Positions 79 to 15,696 of a stretch of 55,489 nucleotides of DNA are shown piece by piece. The stretch covers positions 1 through 55,489 of IMG/VR virus record IMGVR_UViG_3300030106_004677. One strand, given 5' to 3'. Every line of letters starts with the position of its first letter. Position 1 is the first letter of the stretch. A program made the translations under genes and the position numbers. Source of the DNA: a virus (taxonomy: Duplodnaviria > Caudoviricetes). The notes below the pieces were generated by a model, which searched no databases, was not told where the DNA came from, and saw only the letters and a program-made list of their open reading frames with translations.

Positions 79-1866
79 CCCGGCCAAATAACCAATACCT
101 ACATTCCCGCTTGCTGTAGTGACTTCTTTCCCTGCCACAGTGCCAATATAAGTATTATTTTCGCCTGTAGTTAATTTAAACCCAGCTTCAGTGCCTACAG
201 ACACATTGTATTGACCTGTAGCCGCAGTATTTGCTCCTCCAGAATCAACGCCTACTGCGACATTGTAATTGGGAGTCGTAACTTTGCCCCCGGCGTTATG
301 TCCCAAAAAGACGTGACCGAGCCCTGTAGTAACGTCATGGCCAGCCTCATGGCCTACTGCGGTGTTGTCATCTCCTTCCGTCAGGTTGTATAGAGCGGCT
401 TCCCCAATAGCCACAGTATTTCCGGCAGCAGTTGCCGTATACATAGCGTGGGCACCGACAGCAGTATTACGGTCATCCGTCAAGGCTCCGCGCATACTTT
501 GGTAGCCAATCGCCACATTAAAGGATTGGTCTACATTGCCATCTAAAGAATAAGAGCCTAACGCGGTGTTGTGATTTCCTTCGGTGATCGCACCCCCAGA
601 GTTAAACCCGACAGCTACGTTTCTATTTCCCGTGGTCAAGGCATCTAAAGAGTCAGAACCTATACCAACGGTCTGATACGCCGTAGTCGCGGATAGACCA
701 GACTCATTACCTGCAAATACGTTATTATTTCCGGTGGTTAAAGCGTACCCGGCCTTATAACCTATAGAAGCATTGTAACCACCTGTAGATGCAGCACTAG
801 CTGCCCCAGACAATGCGCCTACTGCGACATTGTAAACGCCTGTGGTAACTGTTCCTCCAGCGTCTTTACCTATAAATGTGCTGGTGTGTCCTTCTGTCAG
901 GTCTCCTGCGGCCTGATACCCGACTATGGTATTAGAGCTTCCGGTAGTAACTGCAACTCCCGCCTGATACCCTACTGCGGTATTAGCGACATACGTTGTG
1001 CTAGAAGTGTAATTGGCTACTTTTAAGGCTTCATAACCAACTGCTACGCTGCCGTGGTCATCAATATTACCCAAAAGAGCATAGTGACCAACTGCTACAT
1101 TTCTTGCGCCGGTAGTATTTGCATATAAACCGCTATCGCCAACAGCAACGTTAGCTCCTCCAGAAATGTTTGCAGTTAAAGCTTCCCTCCCTACAGCTAT
1201 GTTATTGGCTGCGGTAGTATTTGCGTCCAGTGCTAAATAGCCGACTGCTACATTTGAATGGCCCGTGGTAATTGCCCCTCCAGCTTCCGCGCCAATAGCT
1301 ACGTTGTTATCGCCCGTCGTAATTGCATCAAGCGCATTAACACCTAAAGCCGTGTTGTAAGAAGCAGTGTCGGTAGTTCCAGAAGGATCAGAGCCAATAT
1401 AGATTGAGTTGTTTTCTTTAAGCGCTACGCTGATAGCAGACAAGTCAGCCACGGTCGTAACCGCAGCTCCAGAACCCGCGCCATCCATATACAAAATCGC
1501 CACCTGAGCATTGGGCACATCAACCGTCGCACCGCTGCCCTGCTTGATGGTGACCGTCCTGCCGCCGGTAGTGGCGTTCTCAATGATCATTACGCGGTTC
1601 AACGTATTCGGCGCAATTGTCAGCTCGCGCGTTGCACTCAGCGTCGCTGAGGAAGTCACCTTGAAGTACATGGCGCGTGCCGGGTCGGTAGCACCATCCG
1701 CTACCGTCGTGGTCGCGTTCGCGTCACTGCTGAAACAGTCCTGAGTGCCGTAGCCCAGCGCCTCACCAATCAGCTCAAGGTTGGTGTTGGTCGTTGTGCC
1801 CCATGTGCCCGAACCTTCGCCGGTGGCGAGTTCAGACAAGCGAAGATCATTAACATAAGTGACCAT
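1..1866 (-). CDS. Tail fibre, N-terminal part, allele A (runs off the left edge; continues through the 78-bp overlap at 54326-54403)
   Basis: Missing from the ORF track because it has no stop in the window. ATG at 1866 reads MVTYVNDLRLSELATGEGSGTWG..., open to base 1 (622 codons), with repeated N-(V/T)-A-(V/I)-G-x-x-A motifs like the 52571-55489 ORF. Confidence 0.88.
   Translation of the reverse strand, partial: MVTYVNDLRLSELATGEGSGTWGTTTNTNLELIGEALGYGTQDCFSSDANATTTVADGATDPARAMYFKVTSSATLSATRELTIAPNTLNRVMIIENATTGGRTVTIKQGSGATVDVPNAQVAILYMDGAGSGAAVTTVADLSAISVALKENNSIYIGSDPSGTTDTASYNTALGVNALDAITTGDNNVAIGAEAGGAITTGHSNVAVGYLALDANTTAANNIAVGREALTANISGGANVAVGDSGLYANTTGARNVAVGHYALLGNIDDHGSVAVGYEALKVANYTSSTTYVANTAVGYQAGVAVTTGSSNTIVGYQAAGDLTEGHTSTFIGKDAGGTVTTGVYNVAVGALSGAASAASTGGYNASIGYKAGYALTTGNNNVFAGNESGLSATTAYQTVGIGSDSLDALTTGNRNVAVGFNSGGAITEGNHNTALGSYSLDGNVDQSFNVAIGYQSMRGALTDDRNTAVGAHAMYTATAAGNTVAIGEAALYNLTEGDDNTAVGHEAGHDVTTGLGHVFLGHNAGGKVTTPNYNVAVGVDSGGANTAATGQYNVSVGTEAGFKLTTGENNTYIGTVAGKEVTTASGNVGIGYLAGGANAASTGNYNTSVGRAAGFAITSGI
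1401..1455. repeat. 55-bp exact direct repeat of the contig end 55435-55489
   Basis: agattgagttg...cagccacggt is identical at both positions; 55 is a common assembler k-mer size. Confidence 0.93.
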
Positions 1867-1878
1867 TTTTATATTCCT

Positions 1879-2649
1879 TTAGGCTGCATCTACGTCCTCA
1901 TAGGACGGAGTCTGAGACGTGCTTATGGTTGAAAAACTCGGAGTCTGCGACGTACTGACCGCAGCAAAACTTGGGGTCTGAGACGTGCTGACGGCCGAAT
2001 AACCCGGAGTTTGGCTGTCGTCAACGACACTATAATCAGGCGTCATGTCTGGATCAACGATCCCCCAGACCAAAACGGTGCCGACTCCAGACGTGATGGA
2101 TTGGCCGGTCAGGTTAACAATCGAAGGACCAATCGTGGTGACTGCACCAATTGCGGACGTGACGGCCTGACCCGTGACCGTGACGTTGTTTTCGCATGAC
2201 AGCGTGGGTGTGCCCACCGCGCTGGTGATCGCTTGTCCGGCCGGCGTGACGTTGGCTTCTGCATCAGTGGTAACTGAGCCGAGCGCTGACGTTGCGCCCA
2301 CACCCGTAATCTGAGTGATCGCGCGCGCAACAATCTGAATCGAGCCGACCCCAGACGTGATCGATTGGCCGGTCGGAGCGACGTTCGCTTCAGCGTCAAT
2401 GCTGAGCGAGCCTACGGCGCTAGTTGCGCCTACGCCGGTAACAGAGACATTGGCTTCGGCGTCAACGCTGAGCGCGCCAAGTCCGGCAGTTGCCGCCACG
2501 CCCGTAGGCGAGACATTGGCTTCGGCATCAGTAGTAACCGATCCAAGGGCGCTGGTAATTGCAAGACCGGTAACCGAGACAGAGGTGCTGAGCGGGGTTC
2601 CCCACGCCCCCAACCCCCATGTGCCTCGACCCCAGCCTTCTTGAGCCAT
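1879..2649 (-). CDS. Virion structural (tail-associated) protein with internal repeats
   Basis: N-terminal GWGRGTWGLGAWG; repeats of about 26 aa (DAEANVxPTG...TSAxG); C-terminal STSQTP repeats; directly upstream of the tail fibre. Confidence 0.7.
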   Translation of the reverse strand: MAQEGWGRGTWGLGAWGTPLSTSVSVTGLAITSALGSVTTDAEANVSPTGVAATAGLGALSVDAEANVSVTGVGATSAVGSLSIDAEANVAPTGQSITSGVGSIQIVARAITQITGVGATSALGSVTTDAEANVTPAGQAITSAVGTPTLSCENNVTVTGQAVTSAIGAVTTIGPSIVNLTGQSITSGVGTVLVWGIVDPDMTPDYSVVDDSQTPGYSAVSTSQTPSFAAVSTSQTPSFSTISTSQTPSYEDVDAA

Positions 2650-2652
2650 TTT

Positions 2653-2808
2653 CTAGGCTCCGAGCTGCTTTTCGGCTTCTTTTAGGTCGGCGACAGACCG
2701 GGTCATGATGTCCCTGACAGAATCAGTTAAAAAGTCTGTCGCCAAACTGGCTTCCAGCAGCGCTATGGCGTTTTTAACGTATTGAATTGGCGTCATAACG
2801 CCAATCAT
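2653..2808 (-). CDS. Small hypothetical protein (51 aa)
   Basis: Hand-translated MIGVMTPIQYVKNAIALLEASL...KQLGA; fills the gap between the neighbouring genes in the same orientation. Confidence 0.55.
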   Translation of the reverse strand: MIGVMTPIQYVKNAIALLEASLATDFLTDSVRDIMTRSVADLKEAEKQLGA

Positions 2809-2811
2809 AGC

Positions 2812-3600
2812 CTATGACGCCTCTGAAAGACCTTGAAATTTACGCCGGAGAATCTTGTCAACTTTTTGGTAACTAAACGGGACCGAAAACAAGCTCTGGA
2901 CCTCCATAGAAATTTTTCTCGACCCTAATCCGCGATCGCGCAGCGCGTAGATCGTCTTCAAAATCTCCATCTCTTCTGGAATTGGCTCCAATCGCGTGCG
3001 CTGCTTGTTGCCAATCTTGACCGGCACCAACTTGTAGCCGTAAGGCGGCGAGCCACCAATAAAGTAGCCGCGAGACGCCCAGTCGATTTTGCCCTCGCCA
3101 AACCGGTCGATCACCGTCGCGTGCTCAATCTCAGACACCGCGCTCAAGACCATCAGCATGATCTTGTTGGCCATTTCGTTCATGTCAAAGCGGCTCTTCA
3201 AGCCTTTGCCGTCGATCGGCTTGGGGTACACAACCGGCACATCGCCAAACTGCTCACAAAAATAGAGCGTAATCCCGGTCGCCTCCAAATCCGGTATCAA
3301 GTTCAGCAGGTCGCCAGCATTCCGCGACAGGCGATCAAGGCGCGTGCAGATAATGACATCGTGTTCCTCGATGCAGTCCGTCATCTCTCTGGACCCGGGA
3401 CGATCCAAAATCGGCATCGTGCCGCTAACCCCGTCATCAATAAAAAACTCATCAACCGGGCGGTTGTACTTCTCTTTCACAAACTCAGTAATCGCCTGCT
3501 GTTGCGTCTCCAAGGAGATGCCGGAGCGCACCTGCTCGCGCGTCGAGACACGGACATAGCCGAATACGCGGTTAATCTGCTTGATGGCCTTGACGCTCAT
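2812..3600 (-). CDS. Serine recombinase (resolvase/invertase catalytic domain with C-terminal extension)
   Basis: GYVRVSTREQ (catalytic Ser), DDGVSG, RLDRLSRN, then GGSPPYGY. Start moved to MSVKAIK (ATGA overlap at 3597-3600). Confidence 0.92.
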   Translation of the reverse strand: MSVKAIKQINRVFGYVRVSTREQVRSGISLETQQQAITEFVKEKYNRPVDEFFIDDGVSGTMPILDRPGSREMTDCIEEHDVIICTRLDRLSRNAGDLLNLIPDLEATGITLYFCEQFGDVPVVYPKPIDGKGLKSRFDMNEMANKIMLMVLSAVSEIEHATVIDRFGEGKIDWASRGYFIGGSPPYGYKLVPVKIGNKQRTRLEPIPEEMEILKTIYALRDRGLGSRKISMEVQSLFSVPFSYQKVDKILRRKFQGLSEAS

Positions 3601-3773
3601 TCCGGTCTCCCCACAACACAATGGCCGTTGGCCGGCCGGGAAATGCTCAGGCTGTTGCGACGATCCTTCGATCCCAGCAACTTGCGCTGCTCGTAAAAAA
3701 AATCCAAAGCATCCTCAATGCAAGAAAACTTCACCGACTCGCCGACCTTTAACGGCTCCACCGGCGCAGTCAC
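3597..3773 (-). CDS. Small hypothetical protein
   Basis: GTGA and ATGA 4-nt overlaps with both neighbours suggest translational coupling. Confidence 0.5.
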   Translation of the reverse strand: MTAPVEPLKVGESVKFSCIEDALDFFYEQRKLLGSKDRRNSLSISRPANGHCVVGRPE

Positions 3774-6888: not shown

Positions 6889-8463
6889 TTAGGTTTCAAC
6901 GCCGGAATAAGGCATCTCTGAAATGTCTTGAGCAACTTCCATAAGCGCTCCTTCGCTTGCTTCTTTTGGCGTAACAACTCCGCTAGATGTCAGCGTAAAC
7001 ATCAGCGCGCCAAGCCCCAATCCCGCGACAGAACTAATTGCTACTCCTCGGTCCTCTAACCGACGAAGCACTTTTTCCGTAATCGTTCCCGAATAAGGTT
7101 TCATTTGCAGAGATCGCATCAGACGCCTTTTTTCTGTGTCGGTCGCAGTTTTAAGCGAGGGGTCTGAAAGGACTTTTTTAGCACTGCCAATTTCCGCGTC
7201 CGGCATCAGCTCAAAGACGGTCACGTCATCTACGCCCTCTAAAACTCCGACACCGCCTCCGCGAATTGCATAGGGGTACGAAGGATGGGTAGACGAAACC
7301 AAATCCTCATCCGCAAAAATACGGCCAACATTCTTAATGCCCAGATCTATTCCAGCTCGTTGACTTTCGTCCGACATAACTAAACGAGCGGCGCCTATAG
7401 ACAATCCTTTCTTGTCGCGAAAACGAACGTCCATCATGTTCGCCAGCTCTTTCCTTTGGGCGTCAGGCAAACTTCTCCAAACGTCAACGCTTCTAGGGTC
7501 ATCTACTCCGGGCCATTCTGGAACCTTAAGGCCGGCGTTAACTCGCTTGCCTTTTCGCATTTCGCCCACAGTCTTAAAGTTGCGAATAGCCGAGTCGAGA
7601 CGTTTCTTTGTCGTCTTGCTCATGTTGGCTGATGCGTAACCAAGCATTAGCTCGCCGACAGTTGTCGAAAAATCACCGCCTGTCGGAGCCATTCTCCAAG
7701 GAATAAATAATGGGTCTCGGCCAGATTTGTCTTTCAAGCTTCTAGCTAAATCAAGAATCTGCTGAGAAGGCACTTTTGCAGAGGCCCAGACATGGTCTGG
7801 GTTTTCAAACATATAGTCTTGCCCGCCCCGCAAGTCCACCGGGCGGTACAGATTCACTTCGTTTATCGACAAAACTGAAGAGCCTGCGGCCGCCCTGTCA
7901 GACATAGAGAAGACCGCTTCTTCGCCCTCCAAATCAGAAAGCCTAAGCTCCGGCCTTGGCTGATTTGCGCCATCAAAAAGCACGGGGTCATGAGTTGTTA
8001 TTTCAGCAGTCGTTCCCCTGAGGACATCTTGTTCTTTTACTCGTGTGTCAAAGCGGGGATCAAAATCATCCACCGGATCAAGAGACCTGATCCCTTTAAC
8101 GGGGCCGCGCGCCGCCCTAACCACCCCACCTAACAAGGGAATTACGCCGGCAGCTTGCAAGGCTGTGGAAAGCTTTTCGCCTTGCTCGATGTTCTCTAGC
8201 AGGCTGGGGTTCCGCTTTGCGCTTAAAATATTTTCCAACACAGACTCTTCTGCATCGGGCGGGGCCGGGTAAAGGCCTAATGCGTCGAAGGCTCCTAACG
8301 GGTCCACAAAGGCGCCGAGAAAGTTTACAAGTTGTGCAGGAGTTGTGCTGCCGGAGGGGGGAGGAGCATACGCATCCATCCCTATCTCCATAAGCTCTTT
8401 CTTTAGCACGTCGCTCTCGACAGGACCGCCGGTGTTAAAAATATCAATTTCGTCTAGGTTCAT
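6889..8463 (-). CDS. Hypothetical protein, possibly internal virion protein
   Basis: Start MNLDEIDIFNTGGPV via ATGA overlap with the upstream stop; carries the x-x-GG-x-V motif shared with the internal proteins. Confidence 0.6.
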   Translation of the reverse strand: MNLDEIDIFNTGGPVESDVLKKELMEIGMDAYAPPPSGSTTPAQLVNFLGAFVDPLGAFDALGLYPAPPDAEESVLENILSAKRNPSLLENIEQGEKLSTALQAAGVIPLLGGVVRAARGPVKGIRSLDPVDDFDPRFDTRVKEQDVLRGTTAEITTHDPVLFDGANQPRPELRLSDLEGEEAVFSMSDRAAAGSSVLSINEVNLYRPVDLRGGQDYMFENPDHVWASAKVPSQQILDLARSLKDKSGRDPLFIPWRMAPTGGDFSTTVGELMLGYASANMSKTTKKRLDSAIRNFKTVGEMRKGKRVNAGLKVPEWPGVDDPRSVDVWRSLPDAQRKELANMMDVRFRDKKGLSIGAARLVMSDESQRAGIDLGIKNVGRIFADEDLVSSTHPSYPYAIRGGGVGVLEGVDDVTVFELMPDAEIGSAKKVLSDPSLKTATDTEKRRLMRSLQMKPYSGTITEKVLRRLEDRGVAISSVAGLGLGALMFTLTSSGVVTPKEASEGALMEVAQDISEMPYSGVET

Positions 8464-8864
8464 GCGGCCACCGAAAAGTCGTGGCAGGCAAGAAGCTCCA
8501 GCCACTGATCAAGGTCCAACACCGCCGTCTTTGTAACGTCTCTTGGCAGCGCCGGGTTTAGGGCATGCAACGGAAGCGTGACCCGGATGCCCTTGTTGTT
8601 AAATTTCCAGATCAGGATGGGGGTGCGGCCGTTAGCTGACTGGCAGACCTGATCCCACCACGCGGGGGCAAACCACCAGCCTGATTTATAGGCCTTGCAC
8701 TCGATTGCAAACCCCGGAATCTCAATGTCGCACAGGTTGTTCGACTGGTATTGATCAAGGTTGCGCTTACACTCGATCGCAAGGTTCCGTGCTTCAAAAG
8801 AAGCATTCAGACGCTTTACAATGGCGCGTTCAAACGCCGCGCCTTTGTTTCTGGAATCAGCCAT
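8460..8864 (-). CDS. PD-(D/E)XK nuclease, Holliday-junction-resolvase-like
   Basis: SRNKGAAFER...CDIEIPGFAIECK pattern typical of small phage Hjc-like nucleases. Confidence 0.8.
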   Translation of the reverse strand: MADSRNKGAAFERAIVKRLNASFEARNLAIECKRNLDQYQSNNLCDIEIPGFAIECKAYKSGWWFAPAWWDQVCQSANGRTPILIWKFNNKGIRVTLPLHALNPALPRDVTKTAVLDLDQWLELLACHDFSVAA

Positions 8865-8885
8865 AGGCTGATTCTACGAATCAAT

Positions 8886-8967
8886 GCCGCAGTCCTGCAA
8901 TGGGCAGGGGGCGCCGGTTCTGCCTGATCGGCGGCGAGCGGGGTTCAAATCCCCGCCTGCGGCACCA
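8886..8967 (+). tRNA. Non-canonical tRNA-like element with encoded CCA
   Basis: Acceptor GCCGCAG/CTGCGGC plus ACCA; T-arm GCGGGG-TTCAAAT-CCCCGC; short D-arm CTGC-AATGG-GCAG; anticodon-like arm CGCCGGT-TCTGCCTG-ATCGGCG with an 8-nt loop. Confidence 0.65.
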
Positions 8968-8972
8968 ATAAA

Positions 8973-9090
8973 TGGCTCGATTTCCTATTATGGGTGGCTA
9001 AATATTCTCTGGCGCGCTCGATACTTCTGGGTGGCTTGCAACTTATGACGCGCTACATCTTAGCGGGTTTCTTTTGCATCTTGGCGGGCT
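8973..9090 (-). ncRNA. TIGR-like array, distal segment (about 3 units)
   Basis: Edge-type repeats at 8973, 9010, 9046 and 9082; loop-type repeats TGGGTGGCT at 8991 and 9028, degenerate at 9064; 9-10-nt spacers. Confidence 0.75.
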
Positions 9091-9241
9091 TCAGCCACGG
9101 CCGCGAAAGCCACGGCTGAACCATAGACGCACGGTACATCTCCACGTCGCCTGAACGCGACTTCAGTTTCGTGTGACAAGCGCGGCAAGCTTTGTTTTGT
9201 GGCTTGATCAACTTGCCGCACGCGCACTCTTTCATCCTCAT
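9053..9241 (-). CDS. Small basic Zn-finger-like protein located inside the array
   Basis: CACG...CRACH; RBS-like AAAGGA upstream; lies between the two array segments. Confidence 0.6.
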   Translation of the reverse strand: MRMKECACGKLIKPQNKACRACHTKLKSRSGDVEMYRASMVQPWLSRPWLKPAKMQKKPAKM

Positions 9242-9278
9242 GGGGTCCGTTCCTTTATGTTGGTTAAATCCAAATATC

Positions 9279-9722
9279 TGACTCGCTTGTCATGAATGGA
9301 TGCCTCCCTCCAAATGGCTCGCTTGCAGAGGTTGAATAAATCGCTGCTAGTGGCTCGTTTCGCGGCGATGGGTAACTAGATTAGTTTGACTCGCTTGATG
9401 CGCTTGGGTGGCCTTCTTCATGCGGCTCGTTAATTGATCATGGGGTGACTTATTACCCTCGACTCGCTTTTATGGTTTGGGTGATTACGTCCGTCTGACT
9501 CGTTTCAACACTTTGGGTGACTCTATATCCTGTGACTCGCTGCATAGCGGTGGGTGACTAAACTCCCATGACTCGTTCTTTCTAAGATGGGTGACTTTTC
9601 TTTTATGACTCGTTTCGTGGATCTGGGTGAATTTCCTACCTAGGCTCGTTCACTTTGATTGAGTGATTTTCTCTAACTGACTCGTTTGATTCTTTTGGGT
9701 GACTTAGATCGGGCGGCTTAAT
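9279..9722 (-). ncRNA. TIGR-like dual-repeat guide RNA array (12 units of 36-37 nt)
   Basis: Plus-strand repeat TG(A/G)CTCG(C/T)T at 9279, 9315, 9351, 9387, 9423, 9460, 9496, 9533, 9569, 9606, 9642, 9678 and degenerate at 9714. It alternates with a TGGGTGACT-type repeat, each separated by unique 9-10-nt spacers. Begins 3 nt after the stop of the Nop-fold gene; one more degenerate unit at 9243-9278. Confidence 0.9.
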
Positions 9723-9725
9723 CCA

Positions 9726-10598
9726 TCACGCAACCTTGTGCACAATACCCAGCTTAGCCTCCGAATACTCCGGGGCCACCGGGAGTCCCTCAAGCTCACG
9801 CCACACCTTGTACAGATCGGTCAAAAACCGCTTGACCATGTACCGAACCGCCATGTTATGGATGTGGCCTTTGCTCTTCTCCGCGTGAGCCGGCATGTGC
9901 TGCAACCGATGCTTGTAGTTGTCGTACACCTCGCGATAGGGGCCGCCGGACTTAATGAACGATGAGCCCAATACCCCAACCAACTTCGTTTTCACAAAAG
10001 GATTGAAGGAAATCCCCTTCTTGGTCTGCTCGTTGCCCTCCGCATCGACGTAGGTTTGGTCAACGAGGTGTTCTTTCTGACGCGATCGGCCCTTGCCATT
10101 AACCACGTCCAGCCCGGCATAGGCATGAAGTGAAGACGGGTACTGAGCCTTATGGATGTCGAACTGGCTGATGATCACGGCCGACATCATCGGGCCACAA
10201 CCCTTCACGTCCTCAAGGAACTCGGTGTAGATGGGGAAGGCCCGGACGGCGTACTTCAGATGCCTCTCCGCATCCTCTTCGCTCTCGACCAAAGCGTTGT
10301 ACATCTCGATCAACGCCAGCTCACTGAACGTAGAGATATGGCCATGCTGCTTGAAGCTGCGGGGTGTCAGGTTGGCAACCCCGTCAGTGATCCGCTCATA
10401 AGAGGATCTCAGGTCAGCCAACAGCAGCTTCGCATCTATCTCCAAAACCTCCTCGGACTCGCCGGGATTTTGGCCGATTTTTTCTTTGAAATTAGCAACG
10501 ATCGCGTTGCCGATCTTGATCCGACTGGACTGAATCGTATACAGGCCGTTGACGGCACTCTTCAGAATTTGGCTTTCGACATTCATGCTCTGCTCCAT
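9726..10598 (-). CDS. tasA: TIGR-associated Nop-domain RNA-binding protein lacking a nuclease domain (TasA-like; IS110/IS116-related fold)
   Basis: Coiled-coil N-terminus, then DVKGCGPMMSAVIISQFD...SSLHAYAGL...FNPFVKTKL...HIHNMAVRYMVKRFL as in the IS110 C-terminal/Nop domain. No RuvC/DEDD or HNH motif and no IS110 catalytic SG motif; adjacent to the dual-repeat array. Confidence 0.82.
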   Translation of the reverse strand: MEQSMNVESQILKSAVNGLYTIQSSRIKIGNAIVANFKEKIGQNPGESEEVLEIDAKLLLADLRSSYERITDGVANLTPRSFKQHGHISTFSELALIEMYNALVESEEDAERHLKYAVRAFPIYTEFLEDVKGCGPMMSAVIISQFDIHKAQYPSSLHAYAGLDVVNGKGRSRQKEHLVDQTYVDAEGNEQTKKGISFNPFVKTKLVGVLGSSFIKSGGPYREVYDNYKHRLQHMPAHAEKSKGHIHNMAVRYMVKRFLTDLYKVWRELEGLPVAPEYSEAKLGIVHKVA

Positions 10599-12830: not shown

Positions 12831-14961
12831 AATCCACGTCCCAAAGCTTCTTGCCGTGGGACTTCCGGGGTCGCATGCCCTTCTCGTGCAAGATCCGACT
12901 CGCTTCTTTGTAGTCGCCCATCCTCGGGTTGGCCACGCCGAGGTCGGCCAGTAGCTGCACCATCTGCACCGGCTTGGTGTTTGTGCCGTCAAAGTTCACC
13001 TGCTGCAGCAGCACGTCTTCCACCGCTGATTGGGTGCGCGAGACCTCGTTGCTGACCTGCAATCGCTCACGCTCATCTCCGTCGAGAAACCACGTTTGCT
13101 TGCCGGCCAGCACTTCGTCCCAGACCTCAGCCCAGACCTGCTGCATGTCGATGCCGTGGTCGAAGTTAATGCGGTTGACCCTGACCACCCAGAACCTTCT
13201 GTTGCCGGTTGGATCGACCAAGAACTCACGCTCGTTGACCGAGCCATAGAACGCCGTGCGTCGCTGGTACTTACTCCAAGCTCGGCCGTAGGGCAGGCGA
13301 ATCTCGTCCTTGCTCTTGGTCAGGAAGGCTTTGAGCTGATCAACGTCAGCCTTGCGGAACGTGCTGCCCAGCTCACCCAGTTCGACAATCCAATGGGAGA
13401 CGCACACCTTGACCGAATCTTTGTCGCTCGGGTTCAGCGTCGCACCCTCCAACAACCAGCTCGGGTCAGGCGCCAGCTTCTTGAACCATTGGGTTTTGCC
13501 CAGCGCCTGTCGGCCCACGAGGATCAGCACGCCTTCTTGGTTGGCGCCCTCGGCACCGCAGGCAGCGGCCGCGCATCCGGCGAGCCACTTCCGCATCAGC
13601 AAGTCCTTGAGATCGTTGTCGTCTGAATCGATCGTGTTCAGCAGGTCGCCGACCCGGTGTTTGCCATCCCACGGCCGGCTCTCAATCCAGTCCTTGACCG
13701 GGTTGTGCTCCCGGGCGAGCAGGGGCAGGTTCTTTGCCAAGCGCGCTTCGCCGAGCGCGTCCTTTATGCAGAGGTTCTCGATGTGGCCGAACTCTGCGTC
13801 TTCGCGCAGGTCATTAATGAATGATTTACCCGGGATCGTGATCTCCATCTCCTTCTTAATCACGTTGTAGCGTATGTCGATCTCGTGTTTTTTCAGCAGC
13901 GCCTCGTAGTTCTCCTGCACCTGCAGGATGCGTCCGGTCGATGGACTGCGCTGGTACTCGACGGGCAGCGTGCTGGTTGCGCTCGGGATCAGCTCCCCCT
14001 CCAACAGGCCTTCGCTCGCCACGTCGTTGAAGTCCTGACCGACCTCGCCCGGCATCAGAATCTCAGCCTCGGCACCTGCTAGGCGCGCCGCGTTGGCGCC
14101 TTTTTCAGCCGCCTTCTGCCCGGCCCCGCTCTCATCGTTGTCGGCGACGAACACATGGGTCGCGTCTGGAAACCAGCCGGCGAAAAGCTTGGGCACTTCC
14201 GCCATGCCGCTTGTGTCGCCGGTGACGATCACGGGCTCGCTGTCGTTAATGTGTTCGTACCAGCTCGCACCGGTCGCATAGCCCTCGACGTAGTTGATTC
14301 GCTCGGGCGTAGTTCGCAGATGCTCTGCGCCAATCAGCGCGTAGGTAGATCGGCGCTTTGCGCCTTTGTGCCACCATTTGTCTTTGCCGTCCGGGCTGAT
14401 GTAGCTCAGCGTAACGATCTGCTTGGACTCGTCTCGGTAGGGCACCACCAGATAGCCGGCGAAGTCAGGGCCGCAGCTCTCCCTGAGCCCGTGCCCTTTT
14501 ACCTTCTTCAATGTCAGATATGGGTGGTCTGTGATGGGCTTGCACGAATCCCAGAAATCCCTGCAGGTTTGAGCAACCTCAGCCTGCTCGGCTGCCAATC
14601 GCTTGTGGTATTCGTCTCTCGCAACGCGAATCGCTTCGCGCTCTTTTTGTCGCTGAATCGGCGTGAGTGAGTCATGGCCATTGGGTCGCCAGCGCGCGAT
14701 CGGCTGGTCGCCCTCCCGCCAGTCAAACGCTGCGCCAAACGGATTCTCTTGGTCTAAAAACAGCAGATACCAGCCCTTCAGCTTTCTGCTATGTCCATTA
14801 GCTTCGCTGTAGGCCCGGCCCCTGCCGTGTTCGATCAGGCCCTCCTTGGGGTCAGGCTCAAGCCCATGTTCAGCGAGGAACGAAACAAAATCGTCTCGGG
14901 CGCTACCGCTCAATGGCTGACTAAAATTCTTGCTGGTGCCCTTCACATTTCTGATTTTCAT
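12781..14961 (-). CDS. Primase-helicase (TOPRIM plus VirE/VapE-type P-loop ATPase)
   Basis: YVEGYATG and FVADND (TOPRIM); Walker A GRQALGKT, WIVELGEL, LVDPTGNRRFW (VirE family). Confidence 0.9.
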   Translation of the reverse strand: MKIRNVKGTSKNFSQPLSGSARDDFVSFLAEHGLEPDPKEGLIEHGRGRAYSEANGHSRKLKGWYLLFLDQENPFGAAFDWREGDQPIARWRPNGHDSLTPIQRQKEREAIRVARDEYHKRLAAEQAEVAQTCRDFWDSCKPITDHPYLTLKKVKGHGLRESCGPDFAGYLVVPYRDESKQIVTLSYISPDGKDKWWHKGAKRRSTYALIGAEHLRTTPERINYVEGYATGASWYEHINDSEPVIVTGDTSGMAEVPKLFAGWFPDATHVFVADNDESGAGQKAAEKGANAARLAGAEAEILMPGEVGQDFNDVASEGLLEGELIPSATSTLPVEYQRSPSTGRILQVQENYEALLKKHEIDIRYNVIKKEMEITIPGKSFINDLREDAEFGHIENLCIKDALGEARLAKNLPLLAREHNPVKDWIESRPWDGKHRVGDLLNTIDSDDNDLKDLLMRKWLAGCAAAACGAEGANQEGVLILVGRQALGKTQWFKKLAPDPSWLLEGATLNPSDKDSVKVCVSHWIVELGELGSTFRKADVDQLKAFLTKSKDEIRLPYGRAWSKYQRRTAFYGSVNEREFLVDPTGNRRFWVVRVNRINFDHGIDMQQVWAEVWDEVLAGKQTWFLDGDERERLQVSNEVSRTQSAVEDVLLQQVNFDGTNTKPVQMVQLLADLGVANPRMGDYKEASRILHEKGMRPRKSHGKKLWDVDYTPLPAPSPHKSWDSF

Positions 14962-15036
14962 TCGTTCTTCTATTGCATGCTGGGAAGCGAGGTGTGTAAG
15001 ATAGTGCAACTTATTACACAAAGGCAAGAAACAATT

Positions 15037-15696
15037 ATGGCTTTAACGGCAAGTACAGGCGGCGGCGCCGCTTTTGAACAAGTCCCAGTCGGAACGCATA
15101 GCGCAGTTTGTTTCCGATTGGTTGACGGTGGGACCGTGATGGAGGAGTACGCCGGGGAGAGCAACAAGCGACACTCGGTCTTCATCTGGTGGGAACTTCC
15201 TGAAGCTTTGATGAGTGATGGCCGGCCGCTAACCATATTCCAAAAATACACTTTATCGCTACATGAGCAGGCTAAATTGCGTCAGCACCTGCAGGCGTGG
15301 CGCAACAAACCTTTCAGCGAAGAAGAGCTGGGCGGGTTTGATCTGACTAAAATTCTTGGCACAACCTGCGGCCTGCAAGTCGATTGGAATCAGACCAACA
15401 CTCGCACTACGGTTAAGGGTGTGTTTGCCGCGGAAGGGGGCGCCAAGCGCGTGGCGACGAAGAACGAGCAGCAGGTCTTCGACCTTGATGATTACTGCAA
15501 AGAGTTCTCTGGTCAGCAGGATGCCGAGAGCCAAAAGGCTTGCGACATCCTCGATGAACTGCCGCGCTTTATTCGTCAGCGCATCACCGGCGACGAGCAG
15601 GCTGGCATTGAGCCTTGCTTTGAGGTGCAGACCGCCGTGCAGATGGGGGGCGCGCCAAAAGCTGAGGACATCGGCGACGAGGACATTCCGTTTTGA
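15037..15696 (+). CDS. Phage single-stranded DNA-binding protein
   Basis: Start MALTAST; acidic C-terminal tail DEDIPF; divergent from the primase-helicase. Confidence 0.75.
   Translation: MALTASTGGGAAFEQVPVGTHSAVCFRLVDGGTVMEEYAGESNKRHSVFIWWELPEALMSDGRPLTIFQKYTLSLHEQAKLRQHLQAWRNKPFSEEELGGFDLTKILGTTCGLQVDWNQTNTRTTVKGVFAAEGGAKRVATKNEQQVFDLDDYCKEFSGQQDAESQKACDILDELPRFIRQRITGDEQAGIEPCFEVQTAVQMGGAPKAEDIGDEDIPF

Follow-up and report, generated by a model that had tools for sequence, protein, structure and literature searches.

A dual-repeat TIGR array with AG/AA repeats beside a TasA-type gene in a marine phage

The subject of this report is a short repeat array in a phage genome, IMG/VR virus record IMGVR_UViG_3300030106_004677 (Duplodnaviria; Caudoviricetes). 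The record is complete at 55,489 bp, with 53.9% guanine plus cytosine (GC), and by the window we mean this whole stretch of DNA. The minus strand of positions 9243-9722 is a dual-repeat array of tandem interspaced guide RNAs (TIGR) of a marine phage, and it serves a nuclease-less Tas protein of the TasA type that is encoded next to it. The features that we discuss are listed here (nt, nucleotides; aa, amino acids; ORF, open reading frame).

9726..10598, minus strand: tas, coding for a 290-aa protein of predicted TasA type (Nop-like RNA-binding fold, without a nuclease domain), from sequence and fold matches
9243..9722, minus strand: sub-array 1, 13 units of edge repeat (A[A/G]CGAGTCA), spacer A, loop repeat (AGTCACCCA) and spacer B
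9714..9722, minus strand: opening 5'-truncated edge repeat ATTAAGCCG, 4 nt past the tas stop codon
9333..9341, minus strand: unit 11 loop ATTTATTCA, with 4 mismatches and a broken box C/D pair
9297..9305, minus strand: loop of unit 12, AGGCATCCA, 2 mismatches, G-C pair intact
9261..9269, minus strand: loop of unit 13, ATTTAACCA, 3 mismatches, pair broken
9243..9260, minus strand: last spacer B ACATAAAGG and truncated edge AACGGACCC, with AAAGGAA, resembling a ribosome-binding site, upstream of the ATG of the next ORF
9243-9251, minus strand: closing 3'-truncated edge AACGGACCC, which closes sub-array 1
9053..9241, minus strand: 62-aa ORF with a CxC...CxxC zinc ribbon, embedded in the array; matches to Pfam DZR and Zn_ribbon_3 fall below the cut-offs
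8973..9090, minus strand: sub-array 2, a degenerate unit (9054-9090) that overlaps the 3' end of the ORF, then two units
9028-9036 and 8991-8999, minus strand: loops of sub-array 2, AGCCACCCA, 1 mismatch each to the consensus
9046-9054, 9010-9018 and 8973-8981, minus strand: edges of sub-array 2, AGCGCGTCA, AGCGCGCCA and ATCGAGCCA, alternating with the two AGCCACCCA loops

Sub-array 1 has the architecture of a dual-repeat TIGR array. After the opening edge, the order is spacer A, loop, spacer B, edge, with an edge consensus of AACGAGTCA or AGCGAGTCA. There are 13 loops and 12 full edges, each of 9 nt and so within the 8-12 nt of TIGR repeats, and the two distinct repeats alternate with spacers of about 9 nt (n=26: 23 of 9 nt and 3 of 10 nt). 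Truncated edges stand at both ends (ATTAAGCCG and AACGGACCC), as they do in dual-repeat arrays, and the array begins only 4 nt past the tas stop codon, which is the adjacency to tas that TIGR arrays show. The opening sequence ATTAAGCCG recurs in the related loci L002, L003, L024 and L025. Repeat matches concentrate at 8991-9704 of the minus strand, which holds 10 of the 19 loop-like and 11 of the 35 edge-like matches of the whole 55 kb, and all exact repeat matches in the record lie within the array. Tandem Repeats Finder missed the array because the repeats are too short for it. A first-pass annotation, made from the sequence alone, had counted 24 spacers, and our recount gives 26. It had also described a constant 9+9+9+9 spacing; a 9-nt register does run from 9261 to 9441, but overall the register drifts because three spacers are 10 nt long. 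Nor is 9243, where that annotation stopped, the end of the array: past the 62-aa ORF (9053-9241) units resume and continue to 8973. The counterpart of sub-array 2 is one unit in L002, L003, L026 and L046 and many units in L006, L009, L033 and L034.

On the strength of sequence matches and a predicted fold, we identify the 290-aa protein as a Tas of the nuclease-less TasA type. A phmmer search of PDB gave TIGR-TasR (9mty) at E 5.3e-15 and TasH at E 1.2e-8. In the AlphaFold model (mean predicted local distance difference test score 76.9), residues 2 to 118 are helical; TasH or TasR chains take the first ten places among its Foldseek matches in PDB (E 2.6e-9 to 1.6e-7), with IS621 recombinases next. 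Pfam gives a weak match to Transposase_20 (IS110-type) and no nuclease family. The predicted protein therefore has what characterizes TasA: a Nop-like fold and a coiled coil, with neither HNH nor RuvC. Its best sequence and fold matches are TaTasR (PDB 9mty) and SpTasH (PDB 9w03, 9w04 and 21kl), but it is only 20-26% identical to them and it lacks their RuvC or HNH domain. In SpTasH, the guide precursor is reportedly cut by Y289 and H296 (PMC13421893). The tyrosine of this processing dyad is aligned, as Y278 of the phage protein matches the catalytic Y289; the H296 column holds I285, and the histidine, H287, lies two residues further on. Y278, K282 and H287 are invariant in 22 of 22 relatives (56-88% identity). 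SpTasH is described with a 16-nt combined spacer where Faure et al. 2025 (PMC12045711) treat it, whereas the phage spacers are 9-10 nt each.

The repeats depart from the familiar TIGR motif in one respect, as the first-pass annotation had noticed. Each spacer was said to follow (C/T)CA and to be followed by AG or AA rather than UG, and this is what we find. As expected for box C, 21 of 26 spacers are preceded by (C/T)CA. On the 3' side there are 12 AG, 10 AA, 3 AT and 1 GG, so that 22 of 26 spacers are followed by AG or AA and none (0 of 26) by TG, which would be the UG of the usual box D. In the description of TasR repeats by Faure et al. (PMC12045711), the repeat begins with UG (box D) and ends with CCA (box C), with G-C pairing, and the edge has one pair more. 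The wording given for TIGRFinder implies 2 + 4 + 3 nt per repeat, with the edge recognized by the complementary ends of its 4-nt gap. The minus-strand repeats fit this scheme: the loop is AG, TCAC, CCA and the edge is AA, CGAG, TCA, and the ends of CGAG are complementary. What differs is that the first base after the spacer is A instead of U. Because divergent motifs are allowed in the published account of TIGR, we take the missing UG to define a variant rather than to exclude the array. Both the window and its relatives at 82-98% Tas identity have a consensus loop with AG...CCA and a consensus edge with AA...TCA, and the box motifs do not covary between edge and loop repeats.

The AG/AA box D is not peculiar to this phage. 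It is kept in the relatives at 82-98% Tas identity and also in those at 46-75%, whose loops are AGAAAACCA, AGAAACCCA or AGATACCCA and whose edges are AGCGAGTCA, AGCGAGCCA, AACGTGTCA or AGCGTGCCA. In Ralstonia phage phiRSL1 (36% Tas identity), 71 of 74 repeats begin with AG, although this count leans towards AG because the program that walked along the array scored AG. Relatives at 24-29% Tas identity carry UG...CCA repeats (TGAAACCCA, TGCGAGCCA). The suggestion of a repeat sub-type is thus upheld: AG or AA occurs in every examined array down to 36% Tas identity, and UG at 24-29%. The AG/AA box D is a real, clade-wide repeat sub-type that extends beyond one phage. We wondered about the absence of RuvC as the cause of the A in place of U and rejected it: lack of a nuclease does not explain the A, because L080, in the 24-29% group, encodes a 276-aa nuclease-less relative and has UG repeats.

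Some further observations concern these distant arrays. In the RSL1 record, the 1.3 kb at positions 14257-15578 (L083 3512-4833), downstream of ORF034 ("transposase"), are annotated as intergenic and hold a TIGR array of about 37 units with AG-type repeats. L040, L042 and L080, which are more distant relatives, have arrays on both sides of tas. At L080 2692-3351 (minus strand), a 219-aa ORF with a repetitive LGF...LAR translation is an artefact of reading the opposite strand of an array. Arrays like that of L080 may be mis-annotated as proteins by gene callers.

The repeat starts read TG on the plus strand, so we considered transcription in that direction. We rejected it: the repeat ends would differ (ACT versus GTT), the inner gap would lack complementary ends, and the arrays in relatives are all on the tas strand. 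Also, the edge pair has more G-T than A-C states (10 versus 4 clusters).

This last count comes from the natural variation of the guide ends. We parsed 22 arrays of relatives with at least 81% Tas identity into 393 units, which form 102 clusters. Among 101 unit clusters, the base at position 7 of the upstream edge varies together with the base 36 nt away at position 2 of the downstream edge: there are 10 G-C, 10 G-T, 4 A-C and 75 A-T clusters (odds ratio 18.75, p 7.7e-6), so that C at upstream position 7 goes with G at downstream position 2. With 161 less strictly dereplicated combinations, the edge covariation has p 7e-9. In the loops, A2 goes with T7 (4 and 4 over 3 and 72; p 0.0012). As a control, positions 7 and 2 inside one repeat show no association (odds ratio 0.27, p 0.29). 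The p-values overstate the independence of the data because the clusters share descent. As read from the repeats of the window, 11 of the 13 edge pairs can form, as can 9 of the 13 loop pairs; the loops of units 11 and 13 cannot pair. The second base of box D pairs with the first base of (C/T)CA, as G-C in the loops and as A-U, G-U or G-C across the edges, and the compensatory changes support the expected pairing of the guide ends.

The loops furthest from tas in sub-array 1 are worn. The first-pass annotation had reported decay at 9333, 9297 and 9261, and the plus strand indeed reads TGAATAAAT, TGGATGCCT and TGGTTAAAT at these positions. From loop 1 to loop 13 of the minus strand, the mismatches to AGTCACCCA are 0,2,1,0,0,0,1,1,2,1,4,2,3 (Spearman rho 0.65, p 0.017). 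Loops 11-13 hold 9 of the 17 mismatches, and this load is reached by only 3 of 286 triplets. Could the pattern have arisen by chance and be without biological meaning? The series has only 13 loops, 2 mismatches occur in unit 2 near Tas as well, and 9 of 11 arrays show no significant trend in loop mismatch. Against this, besides the rarity of such triplets, L001 and L002 carry worn loops in the same units, and a non-orthologous worn pair of loops stands at the matching place before the ORF in L006, L009, L033 and L034. We consider chance to be a very improbable explanation. The orthologues of the unit 11 loop read AGTCACCCA in L003, AGTCACCCG in L026, AGTCACACA in L046 and ATTTACCCA in L001 and L002. 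Judging from the aligned sequences, then, the decay is real and derived.

The worn loops lie beside the zinc-ribbon ORF. By tblastn, this ORF is found inside or after the arrays in 11 of 77 fetched loci (L001, L002, L003, L006, L009, L026-L028, L033, L034 and L046); it overlaps the preceding unit at its start and a degenerate unit at its end. The group of L004, L005, L029 and L037 lacks it, and the arrays there are uninterrupted. In L006, L009, L033 and L034, the pair of loops that precedes the ORF shows 3-4 mismatches and belongs to units that are not orthologous to those of the window, the ATG of the ORF lies within the last spacer, and the part of the array past the ORF is long. So the loops adjacent to the ORF are degenerate in both sub-clades. 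Because near-consensus loops resume past the ORF, the worn loops mark an internal boundary rather than an end of the array. Directly before the ATG of the ORF stand ACATAAAGG and AACGGACCCC, which place AAAGGAA at the distance of a ribosome-binding site. The stretch 9243..9260 is conserved in L001 and L002; in L003 and L026 its place is taken by ACATGAAGG and AG, and these two loci retain the last spacer B (ACATGAAGG) but differ in spacer A. We infer that the worn loops belong to old units, common to relatives, at the boundary with the ORF. Since this stretch doubles as the translation-start region of the ORF, the guide function of the worn units has probably lapsed. Put more broadly, these units would either be under a second constraint or have lost their function as guides.

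Do related arrays grow at one end? They share units as a mosaic. The order of clusters in the window is 43-57-58-59-44-45-46-60-11-72-12-47-48, and units 1-13 are held by 2,1,1,1,2,2,2,1,5,0,5,2,2 other dereplicated arrays. L001 (98% Tas identity) has units 5-9 and 11-13, none of units 1-4, and 12 other units in front. L002 (88%) has units 1, 9, 11, 12 and 13 in common with the window. In L025 (97% identity, with an array cut by the contig end), units 1-4 are common, there is an extra unit after unit 1, and the array then diverges. Contigs from other samples add near-identical variants; for these, neither depth nor missing cover was counted as evidence. The X7 and X11 contigs carry an exact 72-nt, two-unit insertion at the first full edge repeat, and in one of the two inserted units spacer A of unit 4 recurs with a different spacer B. 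An X5 contig has a cluster-2 unit after unit 1, and an X11 contig skips 9430-9559.

In the first-pass annotation, units were supposed to be added or homogenised near the Tas gene. A polarised, CRISPR-like mode of growth would place new units at the Tas-proximal end, perhaps at the first full edge after a fixed unit 1, and old units would decay distally. This would suit the rise in mismatches along sub-array 1, the derived decay of the unit 11 loop, the absence of units 1-4 from L001, which keeps 5-9 and 11-13, and the variants that differ right after unit 1, by one unit in L025 and one X5 contig and by two units (72 nt) in X7 and X11. But the extra cluster-2 unit is old: it also stands at position 2 in arrays of the group with 82-83% Tas identity, which suggests that the window lost this unit and not that others gained it recently. 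L025 keeps the proximal units 1-4 and diverges further in, the stretch that an X11 contig skips is internal, and at the far end of sub-array 2 the window is one unit longer than L002, L003, L026 and L046. As the differences fall after unit 1, in mid-array, at unit 10 and at the far end, change is spread along the array and is not confined to one end as CRISPR-like polarity would have it. Pooled over 11 arrays, unit sharing by array third is flat (mean 1.94 / 2.32 / 2.14). The continuation of the array past the ORF, with near-consensus loops, is also at odds with growth near Tas. We think that polarised growth is unlikely. The alignment of related arrays thus bore out only part of the original idea: the distal loops are derived and units 9 and 11 are the most shared in the sub-clade of the window, but no variable end appears in the pooled arrays. 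These arrays hold units in roughly one order and differ by gain, loss and exchange of whole and half units, with no clear growing end.

Homogenisation is not supported either, because loop variants are inherited with their units. Of the 62 clusters present in at least two arrays, 48 have an identical loop in all copies, and of the 35 clusters whose commonest loop is a variant, 27 keep this variant in at least 75% of copies. Identical variant loops do occur side by side more often than expected (7 observed versus 1.58 expected, P 0.0008; about four independent cases). Neighbours with AGACACCCA have spacers that are 2-4 edits apart each (5-7 per unit), which fits tandem duplication and later divergence, a further source of new units. 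Half units are shared as well: 15 pairs of clusters share spacer A and 11 share spacer B (at most 1 edit) with the other half at least 4 edits apart. These 26 pairs compare with 8 in a reversed-sequence control, both over 10,302 comparisons. Among the 102 unit clusters, no spacer A resembles a spacer B.

The space between tas and the array also varies. In L001 the array lies about 2 kb from tas, and the gap (1650-3772) contains a hairpin directly past the tas stop and a gene whose product has a helicase-like GDEMGLGKT motif. L002 (3859-4080), L003 (2785-3008) and L024 (4871-5104) have an additional small ORF between tas and the array. Its stop codon is within GGATTAAGCC, the array-opening sequence of the window.

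The spacers are poor in GC, as an earlier hand count (92/218) had indicated. We recount 90/219 for the 24 inner spacers and 98/237 for all 26, or 41.4%, compared with 53.9% for the record. Random sets of 26 nine-mers reach such a low GC at a rate of 0.0003 (20,000 draws). The first-pass annotation took this to mean that the targets may lie in AT-richer DNA. On that account the spacers would come from, and be aimed at, DNA richer in AT than that of the phage, for example that of a host or of a rival element. Besides the low GC itself, this could draw on the isolated phages that are closest in their large terminase (57% identity): they infect Pelagibacter, a host that we take to be AT-rich. But 57% identity does not fix the host, and a phage with 54% GC argues against a very AT-rich one; the terminase search gives a loose link to relatives of Pelagibacter phages, and we claim no host. 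More importantly, the bias is specific to a strand. The spacers of the window contain A 87, G 58, T 52 and C 40, and sampling from a duplex would give equal A and T and equal G and C. Across the 102 clusters, A is 32-36% and C is 16-20%, and at the last spacer position C is almost absent (2-4%). In 17 other arrays, UG types included, with flanks of 29-58% GC, spacer GC is below that of the flanks in 13 and above it in 4; among the 17, A leads in 14 arrays and C is the least common base in 12. A strand-specific bias that is common to related arrays does not point to an AT-rich target, so this part of the first-pass annotation does not stand, and we regard such a target as quite improbable. The A-rich, C-poor composition probably reflects a constraint on the guides and not the composition of one target genome. 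Hybrids of RNA purines with DNA pyrimidines are more stable than the reverse, which could make it easier for short guides to invade a DNA duplex.

Downstream of the array region there are two other features. A tRNA-like element at 8886-8966 (plus strand), which faces the end of sub-array 2, also occurs as a conserved element in L002, L003, L026 and L046. ARAGORN called no tRNA, and at 8886-8966 Rfam gave only sub-threshold matches to tRNA-Sec (21.7 bits; gathering score 47) and mascRNA. The next gene, 8460-8864 (minus strand), matches the Pfam family "Phage putative PDDEXK endonuclease" at E 4.4e-9.

Overall, we think it likely, though well short of certain, that the stretch makes up the initial part of a dual-repeat TIGR array for a nuclease-less TasA, that its repeats are an AG/AA variant, that its units turn over as a mosaic, and that the units at its internal boundary are worn. 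Several observations weigh against this. In the sub-clade of the window, the units found in most other arrays (units 9 and 11) are in the distal half, the correlation of loop mismatch with position is non-negative in 11 of 11 arrays (significant in 2 only), and three near-identical variants differ directly after unit 1. Because the unit clusters and arrays share descent, tests on them lack independence. A role of the last unit as ribosome-binding site comes from reading the sequence alone. TIGR arrays are typically followed by a rho-independent terminator, as Faure et al. 2025 (PMC12045711) describe them, and on the minus strand from 8700 to 9700 we found no site resembling one after either sub-array; the only minus-strand terminator-like site of the scanned region is inside tas. 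From RNA libraries there is a single 153-nt contig, identical to 9422-9570, and it reveals neither the strand nor processing nor RNA ends. Finally, a scan of the phage's own genome, in both possible geometries, for the 13 units of the window and then for one representative per cluster, found no target: there were 7 matches with at most 3 mismatches, versus about 5 for shuffled spacers, and 0 with at most 2. We rejected self-targeting, as the counts at 3-4 mismatches equal those of the shuffled controls.

If the locus works like the published systems, then the array and tas would be co-transcribed on the minus strand. TasA would bind each unit and cut within each edge repeat by its C-terminal Tyr/His loop to give guides of 36-37 nt, and a mature guide would take its 5' end from the upstream edge and its 3' end from the downstream edge. 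With its two spacers of 9-10 nt, each guide would direct a TasA dimer to a DNA site of 18-20 bp. The expected outcome would be repression, not cleavage. MbTasA is shown in a preprint to repress transcription, and by this likeness the guides should direct binding without cutting.

The phage system can be compared with several known ones. It resembles the dual-repeat TIGR/TasA systems (Faure et al. 2025, PMC12045711; Xu et al. 2026, preprint 10.64898/2026.09.09.750476) in its alternating 9-nt repeats, its spacers of 9-10 nt and the nuclease-less Nop-fold protein next to it, and also in the truncated end edges, the box C ending in CA, the pair between box D and box C, the extra pair of the edge, and a conserved C-terminal Tyr and His, of which the Tyr aligns with that of SpTasH and the His lies two residues further on. 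It differs in that its box D is AG or AA and never UG, its array has no terminator-like site, and a small ORF lies inside the array. Also, the loop has a G-C pair and the edge an A-U pair, whereas the two repeats are said in the paper to covary almost always. CRISPR arrays, with leader-proximal acquisition and a degenerate terminal repeat, likewise show ordered sharing of units with losses and repeats that are worn at one boundary. Unlike them, the phage array has no clear growing end, half units are exchanged, and a repeat variant stays with its unit in inheritance. According to the discussions of PMC12045711 and 10.64898/2026.09.09.750476, TIGR has no known adaptation genes. Archaeal box C/D small RNAs with Nop5, a comparison made by Faure et al. 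(PMC12045711), similarly have two guides, each between box C and box D, and C/D pairing at the RNA ends, but TIGR has no K-turn or L7Ae part, its target is DNA, and its guides run head to tail.

Where TIGR spacers come from and how they turn over is posed as an open question in both Zhang-laboratory papers (PMC12045711; 10.64898/2026.09.09.750476). Our literature search turned up no study of the origin or turnover of these spacers; by their titles and abstracts, the papers on tigRNA spacer acquisition are reviews. This phage clade supplies more than a dozen related arrays with traceable units, so spacer origin and turnover can be tested by comparison, and we consider a family of related arrays that shows how units change to be the most useful outcome of this work. 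Natural variation, in the form of long-range compensatory changes, gives evidence that the two ends of a TasA guide pair. There are practical consequences too. An array finder that is tuned to UG and anchored on this motif would miss AG/AA arrays, and a scaffold for guides of this TasA clade has to have A at the first position of box D.

More tentatively, TIGR arrays might make their guides without acquisition machinery. In this proposal, which is possible but which we would not be surprised to see fail, recombination at loop as well as edge repeats reshuffles units and half units and so joins old spacers A to other spacers B, tandem duplication and then point change add units, a clade inherits its repertoire, and guides that are rich in purines and poor in C are selected for better duplex invasion. 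If this is true, then the guide set would be a slowly evolving, inherited repertoire across the phage clade and not a record of recent encounters.

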